DNA of 64,000 nt. It comes from Shigella phage SSG23. The DNA is taken from the sequence record PQ351811. One strand, written 5' to 3'. Shown one piece after another: positions 1,354 to 58,609 of this stretch (within the stretch, counting starts at the first letter, position 1; each line of letters opens with the position of its first letter). The notes under the pieces were generated by a model. The model ran no database searches. It saw nothing but the letters and a program-made list of their open reading frames with translations, and was not told the DNA's origin. Position numbers and translations under genes: made by a program.

Positions 1354-4032
1354 ATGTATTTTCTGTCATGTGAGCGAGTAGGTGATAAGATCTACGAGCG
1401 TTATATTGATGATGCTGGACAAGAACAAGAGCGTTACGTTGAATATACGCCAACATTATTTCATCATGCCGCGCCTGGTATGGTTACTAATTATAAAGAT
1501 ATCTATGGCAAGCCTTGCATTGCTAAAAAATTCCCATCTATGAACGAGGCCAACAAATGGCGTAAAAAGATGGGGGAAATGGGGCAAGAGGCACTAGGGA
1601 TGGATGATTTTATCATCTCCTATCTGTCTGATACATATAAAGGTGAGATTCGATATGACCGAAATAAAATCCGTGTAGCATGGGTTGATATTGAGGTCAC
1701 TGCACCGGAATTTCCTAAACCAGAAGAGGCGAAATATCCTATCGATGCAATTACGCATTATGACTCCGTACATGATCGTTTCTTTGTATTTGATTTGAAA
1801 GGAAAAAACGGTGAAATCTGGGAAGCAAGAAAGTCTATTCTTCGACCTGATATTGTAGAGCGCGTTGTTTATAACGTCTATGATACAGAAGATGAATTGC
1901 TATTAGAATACATCCGATTCTTTGAGGAAAATCGACCAGTTGGCTTCACTGGCTGGAACACAGAAACATTCGATATCCCGTATATCATTAAGCGTATCAG
2001 TAATAAGTTTGGAAGTCGAACGGCAAACCGTTTAAGCCCGTGCGGTAAGATTAAATCCCGAATCTCACAGGATGATTTTGGCAACGAGCGTGAAGCATTT
2101 ACGATCATGGGGATCGAAAGCCTTGATTACATTGACCTGTACAAGAAATTTAGCTTTACGACTCAACCAACATATGCATTAGATTATGTTGCTGAATATG
2201 AGACAGGAATCGGTAAGGTTGATTATGATGGTCCGTTAAAGAAATTGCGTGATGACAACCATCAACTTTACATCGATTATAACATCGGCGACGTTGACCG
2301 TGTGCTGGCGATTGATAAAAAACGTGGTTTTATTGATCTGGTGTATAGCCTATGTTTCTATGCAAAAATTAAATTTAACCATGTTTATAATCCGATGAAA
2401 GTATGGGATGCTATTATCTTCGGATCTCTGAAAGCAGAGGGTAAAGTAGTACCGGAAAATAAGATACAGCCTAAGCAGACTTATCCCGGCGCATTTGTAA
2501 AAGAACCTGTGCCGAATGCTTACCGTTGGATGATGAGCTTTGACTTAACAAGTCTTTATCCATCTATTATTCGACAGGTTAATATTTCGCCGGAAACTAT
2601 CGCTGGGTCTTTTGATGCTGCACCGATGCACGAGTATATCAATAAAACTGCCCCGCGTCCGAGTGATGAGTATTCTTGCTCGCCTAACGGATGGATGTAT
2701 CGAAAAGATATTCATGGTATCGTACCGATTGAGATTAAAAAGGTATTCGACCAGCGTAAGCAGTACAAAAACATGATGTTGGCATGTGATCGCAATGCTG
2801 AACTCTGTAAAGCGATTCTACACGATGAAAATCATGTTTATGGGGGAACCATTAGCTATAGCGTTGAAGTTCGTCATGACTTCGATGAAGCGTTTAAATC
2901 TATGCTTTCGGAATTGAGCAAAGATACCCTAGAAAAATTGCTGGAAGAATGTAAAGACGAGTCGATCTTGTGCAACACAAACCAGCTTTCTCGAAAAGTT
3001 TTGATCAACTCCCTTTATGGTGCGTTGGGGAATCCTAAATTCCGCTTTTATGATCTCCGTAACGCTAGTGCGATCACATTGTTTGGTCAGCTTGCAATTC
3101 AGTGGATTGAGCGTAAGATTAACGAATACTTAAACGAGCTTTGCGGAACAACTGATTTTGCATATGTTCGTTATTGTGATACTGACTCCGTTTATGTGCT
3201 GGTTAACAATGTTGTTGATAAGGTTGGCGGGGAAGACCGTTTCGACGATACCGAAAAACTTGTTGACTTCCTTGATAATTTCGGTAAGCATAGAATGGAA
3301 CCGATTATCGACAAGGGATATCGCGAGTTATGCGAGTACATGAACAACTATGAGCACTTGATGTTTATGGACCGTGAGGCAATTGCCGGACCGCCTTTGA
3401 AGTCTGCGGGTATCGGTGGATTCTGGACTGGTAAAAAGCGTTATGCTCTTAATGTTTGGGATATGGAAGGAACGCGCTTTGCTGAACCTAAGCTAAAAAT
3501 CATGGGCTTGGAAACACAACGTAGTTCTACTCCTAAAGCATGTCAGAAATCACTGAAAGAATGTATTCGTCGTATGTTGCAGGAAGGTGAAGAGTCATTG
3601 CAGGAATACTACGGTATTTTTGAGCAAGAATTTAGAAAACTTGACTATCTTGAGGTTGCTGCGGTATCATCTGCAAACAACCTACAGAAATACAGCGATT
3701 CAAACGGGTATCCGATTAAGGGTTGTCCGTATGCGGTTAAGAGTGTATTGTGTTATAATCGTAATGCTCGAAAATTCGGACTAGATCCGATTCGTGAGGG
3801 CGAGAAAGTTATGATCGTACCGCTCAAAGATCGAAATCCGTTTGGAGAAATCTGTTTTGGTTGGTTGTCTGGTACTCGTATTCCGCCAGAAATTGAATCA
3901 GAAGTGTTAAAGTGGTTAGACTGGCCTTTGTTGTTTAATAAGACTTTCGTCAAACCACTGGAGAACATTACCACGGCTGCAAAGCTGCAATATGAAAAAG
4001 TTGCTTCTCTGACTGACCTGTTTGACATTTAA
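1354..4032 (+). CDS. 43: DNA polymerase gp43 (family B)
   Basis: 892 aa from RBS-proximal ATG; long collinear similarity to T4 gp43 (YGKPCIAKKFPSMNEA, DIEV exo motif, SLYPSII, NSLYGALGN, YCDTDS pol motifs). Confidence 0.95.
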   Translation: MYFLSCERVGDKIYERYIDDAGQEQERYVEYTPTLFHHAAPGMVTNYKDIYGKPCIAKKFPSMNEANKWRKKMGEMGQEALGMDDFIISYLSDTYKGEIRYDRNKIRVAWVDIEVTAPEFPKPEEAKYPIDAITHYDSVHDRFFVFDLKGKNGEIWEARKSILRPDIVERVVYNVYDTEDELLLEYIRFFEENRPVGFTGWNTETFDIPYIIKRISNKFGSRTANRLSPCGKIKSRISQDDFGNEREAFTIMGIESLDYIDLYKKFSFTTQPTYALDYVAEYETGIGKVDYDGPLKKLRDDNHQLYIDYNIGDVDRVLAIDKKRGFIDLVYSLCFYAKIKFNHVYNPMKVWDAIIFGSLKAEGKVVPENKIQPKQTYPGAFVKEPVPNAYRWMMSFDLTSLYPSIIRQVNISPETIAGSFDAAPMHEYINKTAPRPSDEYSCSPNGWMYRKDIHGIVPIEIKKVFDQRKQYKNMMLACDRNAELCKAILHDENHVYGGTISYSVEVRHDFDEAFKSMLSELSKDTLEKLLEECKDESILCNTNQLSRKVLINSLYGALGNPKFRFYDLRNASAITLFGQLAIQWIERKINEYLNELCGTTDFAYVRYCDTDSVYVLVNNVVDKVGGEDRFDDTEKLVDFLDNFGKHRMEPIIDKGYRELCEYMNNYEHLMFMDREAIAGPPLKSAGIGGFWTGKKRYALNVWDMEGTRFAEPKLKIMGLETQRSSTPKACQKSLKECIRRMLQEGEESLQEYYGIFEQEFRKLDYLEVAAVSSANNLQKYSDSNGYPIKGCPYAVKSVLCYNRNARKFGLDPIREGEKVMIVPLKDRNPFGEICFGWLSGTRIPPEIESEVLKWLDWPLLFNKTFVKPLENITTAAKLQYEKVASLTDLFDI

Positions 4033-4093
4033 GATAAAGTGTGTATAATGGCGGGTGTTGGGTGACGATACCCGCCAATGTGAGAAATATACT

Positions 4094-4282
4094 ATGAGAG
4101 ACATTGAAAAGATTAAACGTGAACGAGAGGAAGGTATAGAGCATTTCAAGAAAGTTCACGGAAATCACAGCAACGAAGTATTTGTGACGATCGATGTTGA
4201 TGCGATGAAAAAGTTAATTCAAGAGCACTACAAAGATCGAATAACAATGAAGCAATTAAAGTATTACGGATTAACTGAATAG
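4094..4282 (+). CDS. hypothetical small protein
   Basis: 62-aa ORF in the 43-uvsX gap; no motif recognised. Confidence 0.3.
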   Translation: MRDIEKIKREREEGIEHFKKVHGNHSNEVFVTIDVDAMKKLIQEHYKDRITMKQLKYYGLTE

Positions 4283-4293
4283 AGGTATTAATA

Positions 4294-5364
4294 ATGTCTG
4301 TACTGGAAAAACTGAAAAAGAACTCTACCCTGAAAACTACTGCGGTACTGTCTAAATCCAGCTTCTTTAACGAAAAAACAAATACTCGCACTAAGATCCC
4401 GATGCTGAATATTGCGTTTTCTGGTGATCTTAAAAAAGGCTTTCAATCTGGTCTGATTTTCTTTGCTGGTCCGTCTAAGCACTTTAAATCAAACATGGGA
4501 TTAACTTGTGTTAGTGCATACATGAAACAGAATCCTGATGCGGCTTGCTTGTTCTTTGATTCTGAGTTTGGTATTACTTCCGCATATCTGGAATCTATGG
4601 GAGTAGATCCTGATCGCGTGGTGCATGTTCCAATCAAGAACATCGAAGAACTTAAATTTGAAATCATGAACCAGCTTGAGCAAATTACCCGCGAAGATAA
4701 AGTGATTATCTTTATTGACTCAATCGGTAACTTAGCAAGTAAAAAAGAAGTTGAAGACGCGATTAATGAGAAATCCGCGCAGGATATGACGCGAGCTAAA
4801 GCACTTAAAGGCTTGTTCCGTATGGTTACGCCATATCTGACTATGAATGATATCCCGTGCATCGCCATTAACCACACTTACGAAACGCAAGAAATGTTTA
4901 GTAAGACCGTTATGTCCGGCGGTACTGGCGCGATGTATTCAGCCAATGAAGTTTTCATTATCGGTCGTCGTCAGCAGAAAGAAGGAACCGAAATTACTGG
5001 TTATGATTTTATCCTGAATGCGGAAAAATCACGAACCGTTAAAGAAAAATCTAAGTTCCCGATTAGCGTAACCTTTAGCGGTGGTATCGATCCATATTCT
5101 GGCTTGCTGGAATTGGCTGTAGAGTTAGGTTGGGTAGTGAAACCGTCAAACGGCTGGTATTCTCGTTCCATCCTGAATACAGAGACCGGAGAGATGGAAA
5201 CCGAAGAACGCAAGTTCCGTGCTAAAGAAACCAATAGTATTGAGTTCTGGAAACCACTTCTGACAAACGATAAGTTTAACGAAGCAATCAACGATCATTA
5301 TAAGCTGGGACAAGTGATCAGCAATGAAGCAGTTGACAAAGAAATCGAAGATATGTTAGCATAA
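4294..5364 (+). CDS. uvsX: recombinase UvsX (RecA-like)
   Basis: 356 aa; FFNEKTNTRTKIPMLNIAFSG, Walker A FAGPSKHFKSN, DSIGNLASKKE and NHTYETQEMFSKTVMSGGTG match T4 UvsX. Confidence 0.95.
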   Translation: MSVLEKLKKNSTLKTTAVLSKSSFFNEKTNTRTKIPMLNIAFSGDLKKGFQSGLIFFAGPSKHFKSNMGLTCVSAYMKQNPDAACLFFDSEFGITSAYLESMGVDPDRVVHVPIKNIEELKFEIMNQLEQITREDKVIIFIDSIGNLASKKEVEDAINEKSAQDMTRAKALKGLFRMVTPYLTMNDIPCIAINHTYETQEMFSKTVMSGGTGAMYSANEVFIIGRRQQKEGTEITGYDFILNAEKSRTVKEKSKFPISVTFSGGIDPYSGLLELAVELGWVVKPSNGWYSRSILNTETGEMETEERKFRAKETNSIEFWKPLLTNDKFNEAINDHYKLGQVISNEAVDKEIEDMLA

Positions 5365-9799: not shown

Positions 9800-9813
9800 T
9801 TAATGAGGTGAAT

Positions 9814-10332
9814 ATGTCAGAATTTAATTCTTGCGCTGGTCTGGTTAGCGACGAAACTATGTCTAAAGCTGGTATTGCGTATTCCGAGGCAATCACTAGC
9901 GGCAAAGATCCGCTGCAAGTAATGTTAGATATGCAAAAAGGCTTACAGGTCGCACTAGCTGATAAATTTGAGTGGGTGCCGCATCCTGATAAGCTGGAAA
10001 CTTGCGGGGAGATCCTTGATTGGATGAAGTTGTGGGATGACGCAATCGACGACGAGACACGAGAACTTTATGTTGCCCTGGGTGGCATGTCAAATGGCAA
10101 AGATGCAAGCGCAATTACTAAAGTGTGGAAGAAGAACCACGGCGAAGCACGAGCGCGTAAATTTGCTGATCTGTCAGATGACGATAAAATCGAAATTGCG
10201 ATGGAATTGATCGATATCTGGCATTTCGTGCTGATTAAAATGCTGGGCTTAGGTTTAACCGCTAAGGATATCTTCAAGCTGTACTACCTGAAAAATGCTG
10301 AAAATTTCGCCCGTCAAGAACGCGGCTACTAA
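9814..10332 (+). CDS. 56: dCTPase/dUTPase gp56 (MazG-like)
   Basis: DPLQVMLDMQ, HPDKLET, IFKLYYLKNAENFARQERGY match T4 gp56 almost residue-for-residue at the C-terminus. Confidence 0.85.
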   Translation: MSEFNSCAGLVSDETMSKAGIAYSEAITSGKDPLQVMLDMQKGLQVALADKFEWVPHPDKLETCGEILDWMKLWDDAIDDETRELYVALGGMSNGKDASAITKVWKKNHGEARARKFADLSDDDKIEIAMELIDIWHFVLIKMLGLGLTAKDIFKLYYLKNAENFARQERGY

Positions 10333-10368
10333 AAATTAGTTGACACTACTCTATAATGGTTTTATTAT

Positions 10369-10398
10369 GCCTCCCGTCGAAAGATTGGAGGCTTTTTA
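10369..10398 (+). terminator. rho-independent terminator after gene 56
   Basis: Hairpin GCCTCCC...GGAGGC followed by TTTTT. Confidence 0.6.
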
Positions 10399-10400
10399 TT

Positions 10401-10904
10401 ATGCAATTCACACCAGAAGAACTTAACATCATTGATGAAGTGATGAACTCTAAAGAAAATATCGATATGTCGATCCTTAATGGATTGATTGAAAAGACTG
10501 AACGGTTAGTGCATCACGAAGCCTTGTATCGCGGTGTGAGCAAAAGAGAAGGCCGTAAGCTGGATACCTTAATTGTGGGTGATTCTTTCGTTGTAGAGCG
10601 TCCTATGAGCTTTACGCCACTACAATCAACAGCAGAGGACTTTGCAACCGATGTTTATGCAACAGGAAAGATTATTGCAGTAAAACCTACCAAGCCTTGC
10701 ATGAATTATTACGAACATGCTATAGACCGAGTGGTGTCTAAAGAGTATGACAATCCGACTACTCGACTGTCTTTGTATGCTATGTTGGCTGATGAGCGCG
10801 AGTGCATATACAAGACAGGGACGACCATGATCCTTGATGAGATCGAGGAAGTTTACGCGTGCAATGGCGACCTGATAGAGATTTACAAATTTTCTTTAAT
10901 TTAA
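10401..10904 (+). CDS. hypothetical protein; possible mono-ADP-ribosyltransferase (ModA/ModB-like)
   Basis: 167 aa; candidate R-S-ExE triad (LYRGVS, S/T-rich LQST, ERECIY) with ART-like spacing; occupies the modA/modB slot between 56 and dda. Confidence 0.3.
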   Translation: MQFTPEELNIIDEVMNSKENIDMSILNGLIEKTERLVHHEALYRGVSKREGRKLDTLIVGDSFVVERPMSFTPLQSTAEDFATDVYATGKIIAVKPTKPCMNYYEHAIDRVVSKEYDNPTTRLSLYAMLADERECIYKTGTTMILDEIEEVYACNGDLIEIYKFSLI

Positions 10905-10906
10905 GT

Positions 10907-10936
10907 GTTGACAGCACAAACCAGATAGACAATAAT
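10907..10936 (+). promoter_or_regulatory. sigma70-like early promoter (PeSL-family leader, no palindrome)
   Basis: TTGACA 10907-10912, A/T-rich -10 about 18 bp downstream, conserved leader cataccaactaaggagaatcaatt before ATG 10966. Confidence 0.45.
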
Positions 10937-10965
10937 ACACACATACCAACTAAGGAGAATCAATT

Positions 10966-11721
10966 ATGAAACTGTTTGCTTTTAAATCTAACGAAGAATT
11001 GGCGCTGGTTGTTTTCCGTTTGAACTCTATCATGGCTGGCGCTTCTCGTCGTAACAAAGACTTCTCTATGAGCTTAGTCACTGTGCGTAACATCTATCGC
11101 CAGACTCATTGCGCATATTCAGGTGAGGCGTTCGGTGAAGGTGATGATGGACTCTCCTTAGAGCGCATTGATTGCAATCTGGGCTATGTTGATGGCAATG
11201 TGATTCCGGTTAAACTGAAATACAATTCTTTCCGTGGTAATCACACTATCGAATCTCTTAAAGAGATCCAGGAACTAGGAACTAACGGTAAACTTTCTGA
11301 TGATGAGATCGCCCTACGTGCAAAGTACATCGAGTGGATCGAACTTAACGAGAATCGCATCAAGAATCAGGAAATGGCGATTGAAGAAAAGAAATTAGCG
11401 GTAGAACGCCACAAAAAGCACAATGAACCGGAGAAAGCAGAGGCAGCAGAGAAAGCAATTAAAAACACTCTCTTCCGTATGGAAGAACGTTATCAGAAAA
11501 TTGCAGATCTCAAGCAAGCCCTTAGCGAAATCAACAAGAAAGAGGAAAAACTTAAGGCTATTGCAAATAATACCGAAATCGTGCTAAAATATACCAGCGT
11601 TTTGATTGAATCTCTTTCTAAGTATGAGAACTTAACGCCAGCACAAAAAGAACGCGTGAAATACGGGCTTCCGATTGATGCGTCGTGGATTGAATTGATG
11701 AAAGCGAAGGTAGGTTTATAA
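10966..11721 (+). CDS. hypothetical protein with coiled-coil C-terminal half (Srd position)
   Basis: 251-aa ORF; charged repeat-rich C-terminus; position between ART-like gene and dda matches T4 srd; no sequence confirmation. Confidence 0.4.
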   Translation: MKLFAFKSNEELALVVFRLNSIMAGASRRNKDFSMSLVTVRNIYRQTHCAYSGEAFGEGDDGLSLERIDCNLGYVDGNVIPVKLKYNSFRGNHTIESLKEIQELGTNGKLSDDEIALRAKYIEWIELNENRIKNQEMAIEEKKLAVERHKKHNEPEKAEAAEKAIKNTLFRMEERYQKIADLKQALSEINKKEEKLKAIANNTEIVLKYTSVLIESLSKYENLTPAQKERVKYGLPIDASWIELMKAKVGL

Positions 11722-12035
11722 TGCATGTATTTGCTGTATGTTATCGTGATAAAGACGGATTCTTTCAATACTCAGTGGACGCGAAAGGTCGCGTCCTAAC
11801 TTGCGAAACACATGATGCAGCGTTAGCGTCAATGTGTGATCAGATAGATTATTGTGAGAGTCTATTGGCAGGTGAACCGAAATACAAGGTTGTGCCTAAA
11901 CGAAAATTTGGTATAATCCGGTCTTCTGAAATTGTTCGGGATGGTGTAGAATACAAAATTCCAGACTATGAAAAAGAGCGGGTACGACGAGAACTCAATA
12001 CTATCTGTGTTCGCAAGGTGAGGATTTTAGGATAA
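11721..12035 (+). CDS. hypothetical protein
   Basis: 104-aa ORF, start overlaps upstream stop (TAATG). Confidence 0.4.
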   Translation: MHVFAVCYRDKDGFFQYSVDAKGRVLTCETHDAALASMCDQIDYCESLLAGEPKYKVVPKRKFGIIRSSEIVRDGVEYKIPDYEKERVRRELNTICVRKVRILG

Positions 12036-25929: not shown

Positions 25930-26688
25930 ATGAAAAACATTATCGCTGCTATCGTTCTTTCTGCTACTGCTTTCGGTGCTAATGCTGCGTCCTTTGATTG
26001 CACTAAGGCTACTACCAAATCAGAGAAGTTTATTTGTGCTAATGAGTCAATCTCCGCACTGGATTCTAAACTTCATGAAGTATATGTTAAGGCCGTTAAG
26101 ATTGATCCGTCTCTGAAACAAGAGCAACGTAACTGGAATAAAACTGTTCGTGATACTATGATCAATATCGGGCAGATTCAGCCACTGGAGGCTGTATATA
26201 ACGCTCAAATCCAAAACTTGATGAATGTATTACCTAAAGAAGAAACAGCGTCAGAAAGCGATTCAGAGACTTCTGCGAAGGTTGAAAAAGAACAACCGAA
26301 ACAGGAAGCAAAAGTGGTAGAAGAACCGAAGGTTGAAACTTTTACTTATCAATGCAACATTCGCTATGAGTGGAGTATTAAAGATGGAATTTCCACCAAA
26401 ATTAAAGAAGCGCCACTGTATGCCAAATATGGAAATCAACCAGGAGATCTTCAAGTAACAATTAAAAATGGGGAAATGGTCGATTTTGTATACATTGATG
26501 AATACAACGTACACAAAGCAAACGTACAAGAAACCGTTATGACTAAAGGCGGGTTTTATAAAAATGTTGGCAAGAAAGATCTATATGAATACTCCGTTTT
26601 CGAACCAAACGACGGAACTATTCGATTTGAAAAACGTCATCCTACATTCGGTGGCGCAATTGATGTAGATCAATACGTTTGCAAGTAA
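25930..26688 (+). CDS. secreted protein with DUF1311/LprI-like (lysozyme-inhibitor family) N-terminal domain
   Basis: 252 aa; signal peptide MKNIIAAIVLSATAFGANA; FDCTKATTKSEKFICANESISALDSKLHEVY...QEQRNWNKTVRD fits DUF1311 pattern as recalled. Confidence 0.45.
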   Translation: MKNIIAAIVLSATAFGANAASFDCTKATTKSEKFICANESISALDSKLHEVYVKAVKIDPSLKQEQRNWNKTVRDTMINIGQIQPLEAVYNAQIQNLMNVLPKEETASESDSETSAKVEKEQPKQEAKVVEEPKVETFTYQCNIRYEWSIKDGISTKIKEAPLYAKYGNQPGDLQVTIKNGEMVDFVYIDEYNVHKANVQETVMTKGGFYKNVGKKDLYEYSVFEPNDGTIRFEKRHPTFGGAIDVDQYVCK

Positions 26689-40780: not shown

Positions 40781-41377
40781 ATGAAAGAACTTGAATTAAA
40801 ATACTATGCTCATTCACAGGAAGGTGTAGAAACAATCTGTGATTTGTGGGTGGCAATGTATGACGGGTACAATCTCATAGACCGAGATAACATATTAAAA
40901 CACGAATTTTATTATGATACCGAAGATCATGCACTGCGTCGAAAAGGAATTTATGCTCGACTTGACGTTAACAGATCATTGATCATGGTCAAAATAGGTG
41001 ATAGTGAATCTGGACTATTCAACCGAGAAGAAATTACTTTTTCAACAATGGATGATTTCTATCACTATGTTGATAGTCTAGGCGTAAACTCCGACCTTAT
41101 CGTCCCTTTACTGCAAGTTATGACATATCGCAAGTCATTGACACTTGACCTTGAGGGTGCTATAGTGGAAATGTGCAAAGACACTTTCTATTATTGCAAA
41201 GTAGGCGAAGGAATGGGCGACGCTCACTATGAACTTGAGTTCGAGTTAAAATCAGGTGATGAAAAAGCACTTGACATTATCCGAGAAATGATGCTAGAAT
41301 ATGTCGGCGATGATTTAAGTCCTAGCGAAATCTCAAAAGCTGAACGTGGTTTTCAATTAATGATTAAAGAGGGTTAA
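40781..41377 (+). CDS. CYTH-domain (triphosphate tunnel metalloenzyme) protein
   Basis: 198 aa; N-terminal ExExK (ELELKY), YYDTEDHALRRKGIYARLD, NREEIT, YELEFELK fit CYTH (CyaB/ThTPase) signature as recalled. Confidence 0.55.
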   Translation: MKELELKYYAHSQEGVETICDLWVAMYDGYNLIDRDNILKHEFYYDTEDHALRRKGIYARLDVNRSLIMVKIGDSESGLFNREEITFSTMDDFYHYVDSLGVNSDLIVPLLQVMTYRKSLTLDLEGAIVEMCKDTFYYCKVGEGMGDAHYELEFELKSGDEKALDIIREMMLEYVGDDLSPSEISKAERGFQLMIKEG

Positions 41378-50468: not shown

Positions 50469-51635
50469 ATGGGAAATACGGTATTTAATCGTGAACATGT
50501 TGATATTATGAATGAACCGATGTTTCTGGGTAGCGGTTTAGGTATCGCTCGTTATGACATTCAGCGTCATCAAGTATTTGAAGAACTAATTGAAAAATCT
50601 CTGTCATTTTTCTGGCGTCCAGAAGAGATTTCACTTGCAACTGACCGCATTCAATATCTGAATATGGGCGATGTTGAAAAACGTTTCTTTACAGAAAACT
50701 TGAAGTATCAGACATTACTTGATTCTATTCAAGGTCGCGCACCATCCGCAGCATTTGGTCCAATTGTATCTGATCCGACTCTCGATACATGGTTGCAAAC
50801 ATGGACATTCAGCGAGACAATTCATAGCCGCAGTTATACTCACATTATGCGTAACTGTTTCATTGATCCGGCTAGTGAGTTTGACCAGATCATCGATAAC
50901 CCTGCTATCATGAAGCGAGCGGAATCTATCGGGCAATATTATGATGATGTTCTTTATTGGATTCGTAAGTATGAGAATGCAAAAGAAGATCTCCGCTATT
51001 GGGAAGAACGAGACGACCAGACAGCATTAGATGATGCAAGAAGAGTTTTTGAAGATACAAAACGAGATCTGATGGCGTCGATTTATCTGTGTGCACACTG
51101 CGTTAATGCACTGGAAGCAATCCGTTTTTATGTATCCTTTGCATGTACTTTCAGCTTTGCCGAACGTGGTTTACTGGAAGGTAACGCGAAGATCATGAAA
51201 TTTATTGCGCGTGATGAACAACTTCACTTAAAAGGTACACAATACATTATTCGTCAATGGCAAACGGGGGCTGACGGTGATGAGTGGAAACAGATTGCGG
51301 AAGAACTTGAAGACGAAGCAACGAAAATCTTTCTGGATGTTGTCGAGCAAGAAAAAGAATGGGTAGACCACCTATTCGCAATGGGGGCAATTCCTAACCT
51401 GTCACCGGAAATTCTGAAAACCTATGTAGAATACCTGGCAGATTCCCGTATGCGTGCTGCCGGACTGAAAAGCCCGTTTAGTGTTCGTCGTCATCCTTTA
51501 CCGTGGATGCGTAAGTGGTTAAACTCTGACGAAGTTCAAAACGCGGCGCAAGAAGTAGAGATCATGTATCTGGTATCTCAGGTTAATACCGATTTAACAG
51601 ACGACGACTACAACCGATTCGGGAAATATCTATGA
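50469..51635 (+). CDS. nrdB: ribonucleotide reductase small subunit NrdB
   Basis: 388 aa; VDIMNEPMFLGSGLGIARYDIQRHQVFEEL matches T4 NrdB N-terminus; uninterrupted (no intron). Confidence 0.9.
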   Translation: MGNTVFNREHVDIMNEPMFLGSGLGIARYDIQRHQVFEELIEKSLSFFWRPEEISLATDRIQYLNMGDVEKRFFTENLKYQTLLDSIQGRAPSAAFGPIVSDPTLDTWLQTWTFSETIHSRSYTHIMRNCFIDPASEFDQIIDNPAIMKRAESIGQYYDDVLYWIRKYENAKEDLRYWEERDDQTALDDARRVFEDTKRDLMASIYLCAHCVNALEAIRFYVSFACTFSFAERGLLEGNAKIMKFIARDEQLHLKGTQYIIRQWQTGADGDEWKQIAEELEDEATKIFLDVVEQEKEWVDHLFAMGAIPNLSPEILKTYVEYLADSRMRAAGLKSPFSVRRHPLPWMRKWLNSDEVQNAAQEVEIMYLVSQVNTDLTDDDYNRFGKYL

Positions 51636-52108
51636 TATATTTTGTCGATTTAGATTTTACGATCACAGATCCAACGCATCGACTAGCTAAGATGCCAACC
51701 GAAAATCTTGATAAAGTCGAGTCATGGATCGAATATAACAAGGCATGTGGGGGAGATTCCCCCATTTACGATGTAATTCGTGTTATCAATGCTCTTTCTG
51801 ACAACGGTCATTTGATTTACATCCTCACCGGACGAAGTTCACATGCTTACATAGAAACGGTGGAATGGCTGATCGCTAATGATGTGTGTTTCGATAAAAT
51901 CTTTATGAGAGGTCGCAATGATTCCCGTAAAGACTATCACATCAAATTAGAGGTAATTAAATCCTTTGATAAAGATGAAGTTGTCGGAGTCTTTGAGGAT
52001 AACCCGGAAGTGATTAAAGTTCTCAGAGAAAACGGCTATCGTGTCTTTGACGTAGGAAATCACAAAGACAAGACACGAGCGGATATTGCAAATCACGGTC
52101 ATGATTAA
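51632..52108 (+). CDS. HAD-superfamily phosphatase-like protein
   Basis: 158 aa; N-terminal DLDFT (DxDxT) motif and later GRSS... region. Confidence 0.45.
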   Translation: MIYFVDLDFTITDPTHRLAKMPTENLDKVESWIEYNKACGGDSPIYDVIRVINALSDNGHLIYILTGRSSHAYIETVEWLIANDVCFDKIFMRGRNDSRKDYHIKLEVIKSFDKDEVVGVFEDNPEVIKVLRENGYRVFDVGNHKDKTRADIANHGHD

Positions 52109-56714: not shown

Positions 56715-57221
56715 ATGTTATCACAAACTTACATGCAGATCGCCTATCTGATCGCAAAGAACTCTAAATGTGTTTCGTGGAAGGTAGGCGCACTAATTGA
56801 AAAAGACGGTCGAATCATTTCTACTGGATTTAATGGCACTCCGGCAGGGCAAGTAAATTGTAGCTGTCATGCACATAAAAGCGGTTGGCTGGATGATGAA
56901 GGTAAAATGATCCCTGAAAAGCGACCGGAACATAGCGCATGGTCACAGAAAAACGAGATCCACGCTGAATTAAATGCTATTTTGTTTGCTGCCCGTAATG
57001 GTGTATCGATTGAAGGGGCTAGTATGTGGTGCACTGCTTCACCGTGTCCAGATTGCGCTAAAGCAATTGCAAACAGTGGCATTAAACATCTATACTATTG
57101 CGATACATACGACCGAAATGGTGGGCGTGATTGGGCTGATATTTTGGATAAAGCCGACATTACGGTTACGCGTATTCCAAAAGCATTATTGACTGATTTG
57201 AAGGGTATTGATAATGACTGA
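56715..57221 (+). CDS. cd: dCMP deaminase
   Basis: QIAYLIAKNSKCVSWKVGALIEKDGRIISTGFNGTPAG, HAELNAILFAARNG, SPCPDCAKAIANSGIK match T4 Cd. Confidence 0.85.
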   Translation: MLSQTYMQIAYLIAKNSKCVSWKVGALIEKDGRIISTGFNGTPAGQVNCSCHAHKSGWLDDEGKMIPEKRPEHSAWSQKNEIHAELNAILFAARNGVSIEGASMWCTASPCPDCAKAIANSGIKHLYYCDTYDRNGGRDWADILDKADITVTRIPKALLTDLKGIDND

Positions 57222-57528
57222 ACAAATTGATAATATCGTACTTCGTGAAGCACTCAAGAAAATGTTTTCGGTCGGTACTCACTCTTTGCAGTTTACTAAG
57301 AAAGATGGTACTGTCCGAGATATGATCGCCACGCGAGATCCGGCACTGATGCCATTTGAAACATACGAAAAGTGGTTAGTGCCTAATGTTGATAAACCGC
57401 GTAAAGAATCAGAAACATCTTTGCCAGTATATGAAATTGCAGTTGAAGGTTTTCGTAGCTTCGGGCTTGATAGTCTGATTCATGTAAACGGCTTAACGCC
57501 AGCGCAGATCATCGAAATTTATAAATAA
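57214..57528 (+). CDS. hypothetical protein
   Basis: 104-aa ORF overlapping cd stop. Confidence 0.4.
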   Translation: MTEQIDNIVLREALKKMFSVGTHSLQFTKKDGTVRDMIATRDPALMPFETYEKWLVPNVDKPRKESETSLPVYEIAVEGFRSFGLDSLIHVNGLTPAQIIEIYK

Positions 57529-57975: not shown

Positions 57976-58140
57976 ATGAAAACTATGAATGTAAACATCC
58001 ACGAAATCCATACCGAAGTATTCACCGAAGAAGACCAGTTTGGTGTATGGGTAAATCCTCACTCGATTACTATCGATATTCCTCATGACGATTACGATCC
58101 GTTCTCTATGATTAGCGAGATTAGTTTCAATGACTTCTGA
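57976..58140 (+). CDS. hypothetical 54-aa protein
   Basis: RBS-preceded ATG; below ORF-track cutoff. Confidence 0.3.
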   Translation: MKTMNVNIHEIHTEVFTEEDQFGVWVNPHSITIDIPHDDYDPFSMISEISFNDF

Positions 58141-58609
58141 AATTGATATCTATGCGGGTGGACCTTATCCATCTGGCGAGTTGAGTAATTTCAATAAAAG
58201 ACCATTCCGTCTATTTGGTTGCGATATTAACAGCACAGAAGGATTTTTACAGGGGCTAAGATTTAAGAACCCTCAGAGACAAAGAGAAATCTTTTTGATG
58301 CACGGTGGCAAAGCAAAAAGAACCGGAAGGACTGAAAAGATAGAGAATCACATGCTATATTTTCAGGGTCGCCCGATTCATCGAATGAGTGAGCATTATT
58401 ACAGACTGGTACATCTGGCATTTGTTACGATGGCACGGAATAACCCAGAATTTTGTAAAGCATTACTCGCTACCGGAAATAAGAAATTGCGTCATAGCAT
58501 AGGTGGAACTGATCCGTTAAAGACCATATTGACCGAATCGGAATTTTGTAGTATCCTCAATGATATTCGTGAACGTTTAACAAAACGAGGTGAAAATGTC
58601 AATTCTTAA
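58130..58609 (+). CDS. NADAR-like (YbiA/DUF1768 family) protein
   Basis: 159 aa; ELSNF, STEGFLQGLRF (cf. YbiA DFSNF...TSEHYFQAQKF), KALLATGNKKL fit NADAR pattern as recalled. Confidence 0.5.
   Translation: MTSEIDIYAGGPYPSGELSNFNKRPFRLFGCDINSTEGFLQGLRFKNPQRQREIFLMHGGKAKRTGRTEKIENHMLYFQGRPIHRMSEHYYRLVHLAFVTMARNNPEFCKALLATGNKKLRHSIGGTDPLKTILTESEFCSILNDIRERLTKRGENVNS

Follow-up and report, generated by a model that had tools for sequence, protein, structure and literature searches.

The 167-aa open reading frame that runs from the ATG at 10401 to the TAA at 10902-10904 raises the question of whether the phage encodes an ADP-ribosyltransferase (ART) in the place where T4 carries modA and modB, as an earlier note made from the sequence had proposed, and whether such an enzyme would form a writer and eraser pair with a NADAR-like gene elsewhere in the window, that is, the whole stretch of 64,000 nucleotides analyzed here. 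A 2 kb query covering the locus (9800-11800) matches Shigella phage SFHK24 (PQ351812.1) at 100% identity and 57 other records at 91-99% identity, essentially all of them RB49-like phages of the genus Krischvirus, and the window is, judging from these matches, a Krischvirus (RB49-like) genome. In SFHK24, the CDS at identical coordinates is named 'RNA polymerase ADP-ribosylase', and the same gene appears as 'modB, ModB ADP-ribosylase' in the RB49 record AY343333. Other records use the names ADP-ribosylase, ModA or ModB ADP-ribosyltransferase, and NAD--protein ADP-ribosyltransferase, and of the 25 listed Krischvirus records most name it an ADP-ribosylase. The gene is therefore already known, its modB label having been public since 2003, and the ART reading is the standing annotation. 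It has little value as a discovery, being covered by the RB49 modB record, PHROG 832, and the Pfam family Mod_ADP_RT. The features of the locus are collected in Table 1.

Table 1. Coordinates of the mod gene, its predicted catalytic motifs, and the putative upstream signals in the window.
Feature	Position	Strand	Basis
Mod-family ADP-ribosyltransferase CDS, 167 aa	10401..10904	+	Sequence similarity, predicted fold, synteny
R44 codon, 'R' of R-S-E, predicted NAD+ binding	10530..10532	+	Invariant; aligns with ModB R73
S70-F71-T72 codons, S-x-S/T motif	10608..10616	+	S70 and F71 invariant; predicted strand 69-72
E132-R133-E134 codons, ExE motif	10794..10802	+	Both Glu invariant; EQE aligned in ModA/ModB
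Sigma-70-type early-promoter-like site, TTGACA-N17-TATTAT	10340..10368	+	Consensus match, 11/12 positions
Hairpin GCCUCC/GGAGGC (10369-10392) and U-run (10393-10397)	10369..10397	+	-15 kcal/mol, z -2.87 vs shuffles
Shine-Dalgarno GGAGG, 9 nt before ATG	10387..10391	+	Sequence; annotated RBS in Makalu_003

A longer, 182-aa reading from an ATG at 10356, given in a mechanical list of open reading frames, was rejected. That ATG lies within the spacer of the promoter-like site, and the longer start is further disfavoured by the position of the GGAGG relative to ATG 10401 and by the equivalent methionine being the start in all close homologues.

The 167-aa protein is similar both to a Mod-family profile, PHROG 832 'RNA polymerase ADP-ribosylase' (E 1.2e-20), and to the two T4 enzymes themselves. 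BLASTP gave 33% identity to T4 ModB over residues 2-113 (E 1e-10, 44 bits), to which the confident ModB alignment is limited, and 23% identity to T4 ModA over residues 3-155 (E 1e-6, 32 bits). A tblastn search detected relatives in 464 phage records, where the annotation is nearly always that of a Mod-type ADP-ribosylase from a T4-like phage, and close homologues, including a cluster at 98% identity, carry the precomputed Pfam assignment PF26816, which is Mod_ADP_RT. A Pfam scan of the protein returned a sub-threshold DUF5507 match only, because the release scanned predates PF26816, and an NCBIfam scan gave no match. Nothing significantly similar was found when PDB sequences were searched with the single protein, and the family profile reached Vis (E 0.032) and XopAI (E 0.22) in the same sequences at sub-significant values. 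Word-indexed searches returned three and then 12 homologues and an exhaustive search of representatives 21, which makes the Mod family a small one.

The three elements that the earlier note had picked out, a YRG, a Ser/Thr-rich segment, and an ERE, are indeed present, as Y43-R44-G45, S70-F71-T72 followed by S76-T77, and E132-R133-E134, respectively. In an alignment of 26 family members with 19-98% identity to the query, from which the T4 ModA row was left out, the sole invariant columns are R44, G45, S70, F71, F81, E132, and E134, and the R44, S70, and E132 motifs are not a matter of chance, since they are among these few columns. Within the segment L42-Y43-R44-G45, R44-G45 aligns with R73-G74 of T4 ModB, in which the R73A substitution was reported to abolish ADP-ribosyltransferase activity (PMC10468400), and E132-x-E134 aligns with the E-Q-E of both T4 ModA and T4 ModB. 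The family profile likewise places the YRG, SFS, and ExE motifs onto 'YRG', 'TSTS', and 'EAE' of Vis, and the ExE onto 'EQE' of XopAI. An AlphaFold2 model built on the 26-sequence alignment (mean pLDDT 93.8, pTM 0.87) puts R44 on strand 42-45, S70-T72 on strand 69-72, and the ExE just before strand 135-137. A fold comparison gave Foldseek matches to ARTs in the PDB with E as low as 3.5e-7, together with query-normalised TM-scores of 0.81-0.93 to those predicted viral structures that bear the names ADP-ribosylase, ModA, or ModB. All the features of the R-S-E clade are thus found in the protein, namely the predicted ART fold with its split beta-sheet NAD+ pocket, an Arg on beta-1, an S-x-S/T on beta-2, and a (Q/E)-x-E. 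The PHROG 832 match, the similarity to T4 ModA and ModB, the invariant R-S-E residues, the model, and the synteny described below bear out the ADP-ribosyltransferase reading and support the assignment of the protein to the phage Mod family within the R-S-E clade.

The protein is shorter than its characterised relatives, which might suggest a catalytically dead ART-fold protein retained for a binding or structural role. The comparison with RB49 argues against such a decay of function: the two genes differ at 12 nucleotides, 11 of them synonymous and only one in a non-synonymous codon, and the mod gene is under strong purifying selection. Every catalytic position is moreover intact and invariant, and the model shows the NAD-pocket fold at high confidence, so that a dead enzyme appears very improbable.

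In the R-S-E toxins of the C3, iota, and VIP2 types, the Arg and the serine of the STS motif give the NAD+ pocket its shape, the catalytic residue is the second Glu of the ExE, and the first goes with arginine acceptors. By analogy with the solved R-S-E enzymes, NAD+ would be bound by R44 and S70 of the phage protein, catalysis would depend on the glutamate E134, and specificity for arginine would come from E132. It is very likely that the gene encodes an arginine-specific mono-ADP-ribosyltransferase of the Mod family and the R-S-E clade that acts early on host proteins. Such an enzyme would use NAD+ to place a single ADP-ribose on arginines of host proteins early in infection, and its targets may belong to host transcription or translation, as do those of T4 ModA, which ADP-ribosylates the two RNA polymerase alpha subunits at Arg265, and of T4 ModB, which acts on arginines in S1, EF-Tu, and trigger factor. 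We infer the catalytic activity, the arginine specificity, the host-protein targets, and the early timing; a literature search found no published biochemical data on any Krischvirus Mod protein. The bacterial mono-ARTs of the R-S-E clade (VIP2, iota-like toxins, Vis, Certhrax, C3, SpvB, and HopU1) share 8-21% identity with the query, which is phage-encoded and intracellular and, unlike them, has no secretion or translocation domains.

The fold and the R-S-ExE residues alone do not fix the acceptor, and in the tree the query branches separately from ModA and ModB. An ART-fold enzyme with an acceptor other than host-protein arginine can therefore be envisaged, either nucleic-acid bases, as in pierisin- or Scabin-type enzymes, or a specific host defence protein, as was reported for the phage ART AcrIF11; phage ARTs with anti-defence roles are described (PMC12421852). 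This reading is improbable, and modification of host-protein arginines is preferred.

The relationship to the two T4 enzymes is less direct than the public label suggests. T4 ModB, for which S1, L2, EF-Tu, and trigger factor are substrates of both ADP-ribosylation and RNAylation, has 207 aa, 40 residues more than the query, which is without the N-terminal extension of about 30 residues and the insert of about 12 residues before the ExE that are found in T4 ModA and ModB. Common to the query and T4 ModB are the R-G, S-F-T, and E-x-E motifs, the slot upstream of srd, and an early-promoter-like site upstream. T4 ModA (200 aa), which adjoins ModB in the T4 slot and represents a divergent branch of the Mod family, has the R and the ExE as in the query but S-A-S where the query and ModB have S-F-T. 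In a neighbour-joining tree, the query was placed with six short relatives (161-176 aa) on a separate branch, recovered in only 48/100 bootstrap resamples, and not in a group with ModB that leaves out ModA and the other Mod branches. The distances were 1.86 between query and ModB, 2.09 between query and ModA, and 1.93 between ModA and ModB, at which divergence such a tree is weak. The query would thus be a clear orthologue of neither ModA nor ModB. On the same sequence grounds, the 'modB' label is to be regarded as nominal, and the targets would not be transferable from T4.

The label would be exact if the protein were a ModB-type RNAylating enzyme with NAD-capped RNA as its main substrate, which it would join to host ribosomal proteins, since T4 ModB was reported to RNAylate S1 and L2, i.e., to transfer NAD-capped RNA onto them (PMC10468400). 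The query scores slightly higher against ModB than against ModA (44 vs 32 bits) and was nearer to ModB in 79/100 bootstrap resamples. However, its branch in the tree is separate from that of ModB, the confident alignment stops at residue 113, and RNAylation is not decidable from sequence, which leaves this reading unlikely, if still worth serious consideration beside the arginine-specific mono-ADP-ribosyltransferase preferred here.

The number of Mod genes also differs between the two groups of phages. Counted as tblastn places per record, each Krischvirus record has one Mod match and many T4-type records have two, and the mod gene is, by this sequence count, the only Mod paralogue in RB49-like phages. 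Because there is one Mod where T4 has two, and because it branches apart from both, the single minimal protein may combine the roles of ModA and ModB, acting on RNA polymerase alpha and the translation apparatus and possibly in RNAylation, or it may have a target set of its own, and its translation may be gated by a hairpin; we regard this extension as tentative and rather doubtful. A naturally minimal, single-copy Mod of 167 aa with a confident model could suit the study of target choice and of the use of NAD-capped RNA. A diverged alt gene was also reported in RB49 (PMC1524935), so the phage would have at least two ARTs.

The earlier note had also placed the gene in the slot occupied by modA and modB in T4, and the gene order agrees with this. 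In both the window and RB49, the order is primase (61), dCTPase (56), mod, srd, Y01A (dda.1), dda, and, further on, dexA, and in T4, modB-modA lies directly upstream of srd-dda.1-dda-dexA. The gene thus adjoins srd, dda.1, and dda, an early-region position. A distant member of the family (39% identity) on a 169-kb T4-like metagenomic contig is likewise located directly upstream of Y01A-Dda. On the same contig, genes for a Mom-like protein, a Tad2-like protein (a weak match), and an N6/N4 methyltransferase are found between dCTPase and Mod (2997-4932), which makes the slot a variable insertion site.

The two neighbours of mod in the window have features of their own. Gene 56 on the upstream side (dCTPase, 9814-10332, plus strand) has 72% DNA identity to its RB49 counterpart, with 53 non-synonymous codon differences, unlike mod, srd, Y01A, and dda, which are 94-98% identical to those of RB49, and its allele looks like a mosaic replacement of a single gene. 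On the downstream side, 10966-11721 (plus strand) encodes a 251-aa Srd-like protein (PHROG 1400, E 1e-73), the N-terminal part of which also matches HNH-endonuclease and endonuclease VII PHROGs (E 1e-12 to 1e-5), and this gene has its own TTGACA-N17-AATAAT site at 10908-10936.

The short interval between gene 56 and mod may determine how the enzyme is expressed. Positions 10333-10400 are nearly identical to RB49 (one indel), though the adjoining gene 56 is only 72% identical. The interval carries an early-promoter-like site, identical in RB49, sites of this kind being recognised by consensus match only, with four found in the region vs 3.2 expected. Directly 3' of it is a predicted hairpin, the 3' arm of which contains the Shine-Dalgarno GGAGG. 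At this position, the Makalu_003 record annotates a 'terminator' that overlaps the RBS, and a terminator scan of the region did not call the hairpin 10369-10397. From the energy prediction, the hairpin resembles a terminator that would stop read-through from gene 56. A transcript starting about 7 nt after the -10 hexamer (near 10375) would be missing the 5' arm, leaving the RBS free, whereas transcripts reading through from gene 56 would contain the whole hairpin, with termination or poor translation as the outcome. Only transcripts from mod's own early-type promoter would then be translated efficiently. We infer this model of expression from consensus matching and energy prediction. Similar arrangements of hairpin and RBS occur in some T4 genes. 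If true, gating by a promoter inside a hairpin would prevent a toxic enzyme from being made from read-through transcripts.

The second part of the question concerns the proposed eraser. No family under the name NADAR came up in Pfam scans of 20 open reading frames or in a PHROG scan of 10. The open reading frame at 58130-58609 was indicated by its motif and by phmmer with an approximate E. coli YbiA query (E 0.12, 'LSNF...STEGFLQG'), a lead only, and this frame is almost certainly the 'NADAR-like gene' of the earlier note. It is located on the plus strand, 47 kb from the mod gene, and encodes a gp30.3-family protein (PF08010, E 1.2e-38) with 38% identity to T4 gp30.3; one of its homologues carries the NADAR family PF08719 in addition to PF08010. 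T4 gp30.3 has been renamed AdfN, reportedly a DNA ADP-ribosylglycohydrolase of NADAR fold that reverses the modification of guanine by the host toxin DarT1 (PMC11825919). The residue matching the T4 catalytic E36 is conserved in the window's protein, and T4 K43 is replaced by Arg. That NADAR genes are found together with ARTs in T4-like phages was already noted (PMC9503650). The suggestion that both a writer and an eraser of ADP-ribosylation are encoded therefore stands insofar as an ART and an ADP-ribose-removing enzyme are both present, as in T4. Its extension to a matched pair would be doubtful, since the reported substrate of T4 AdfN is the ADP-ribosyl-guanine that host DarT1 forms in DNA, rather than protein arginine. 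Specificity of NADAR proteins for guanine is also reported, and our search found no report of NADAR or AdfN activity on ADP-ribosyl-arginine. On present knowledge, and by analogy with T4, the mod ART and the gp30.3 homologue would act on different substrates and serve different purposes.

Several other open reading frames of the window, all on the plus strand, have domain matches of their own. The 198-aa product of 40781-41377, annotated as hypothetical, contains a CYTH (triphosphate tunnel metalloenzyme) domain (Pfam E 1.5e-6), and its gene adjoins that of an RNase H-like exonuclease. Two small early-region frames, likewise annotated as hypothetical, match an LprI lysozyme-inhibitor-like domain (25930-26688, E 1.3e-5) and a WYL_2 Sm-like domain (57214-57528, E 3e-9). 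Finally, 51632-52108 encodes a stand-alone HAD phosphatase of 158 aa that is similar to the polynucleotide kinase phosphatase domain (PF25109, E 1.6e-13) and is separate from a full-length pseT-like gene further downstream.
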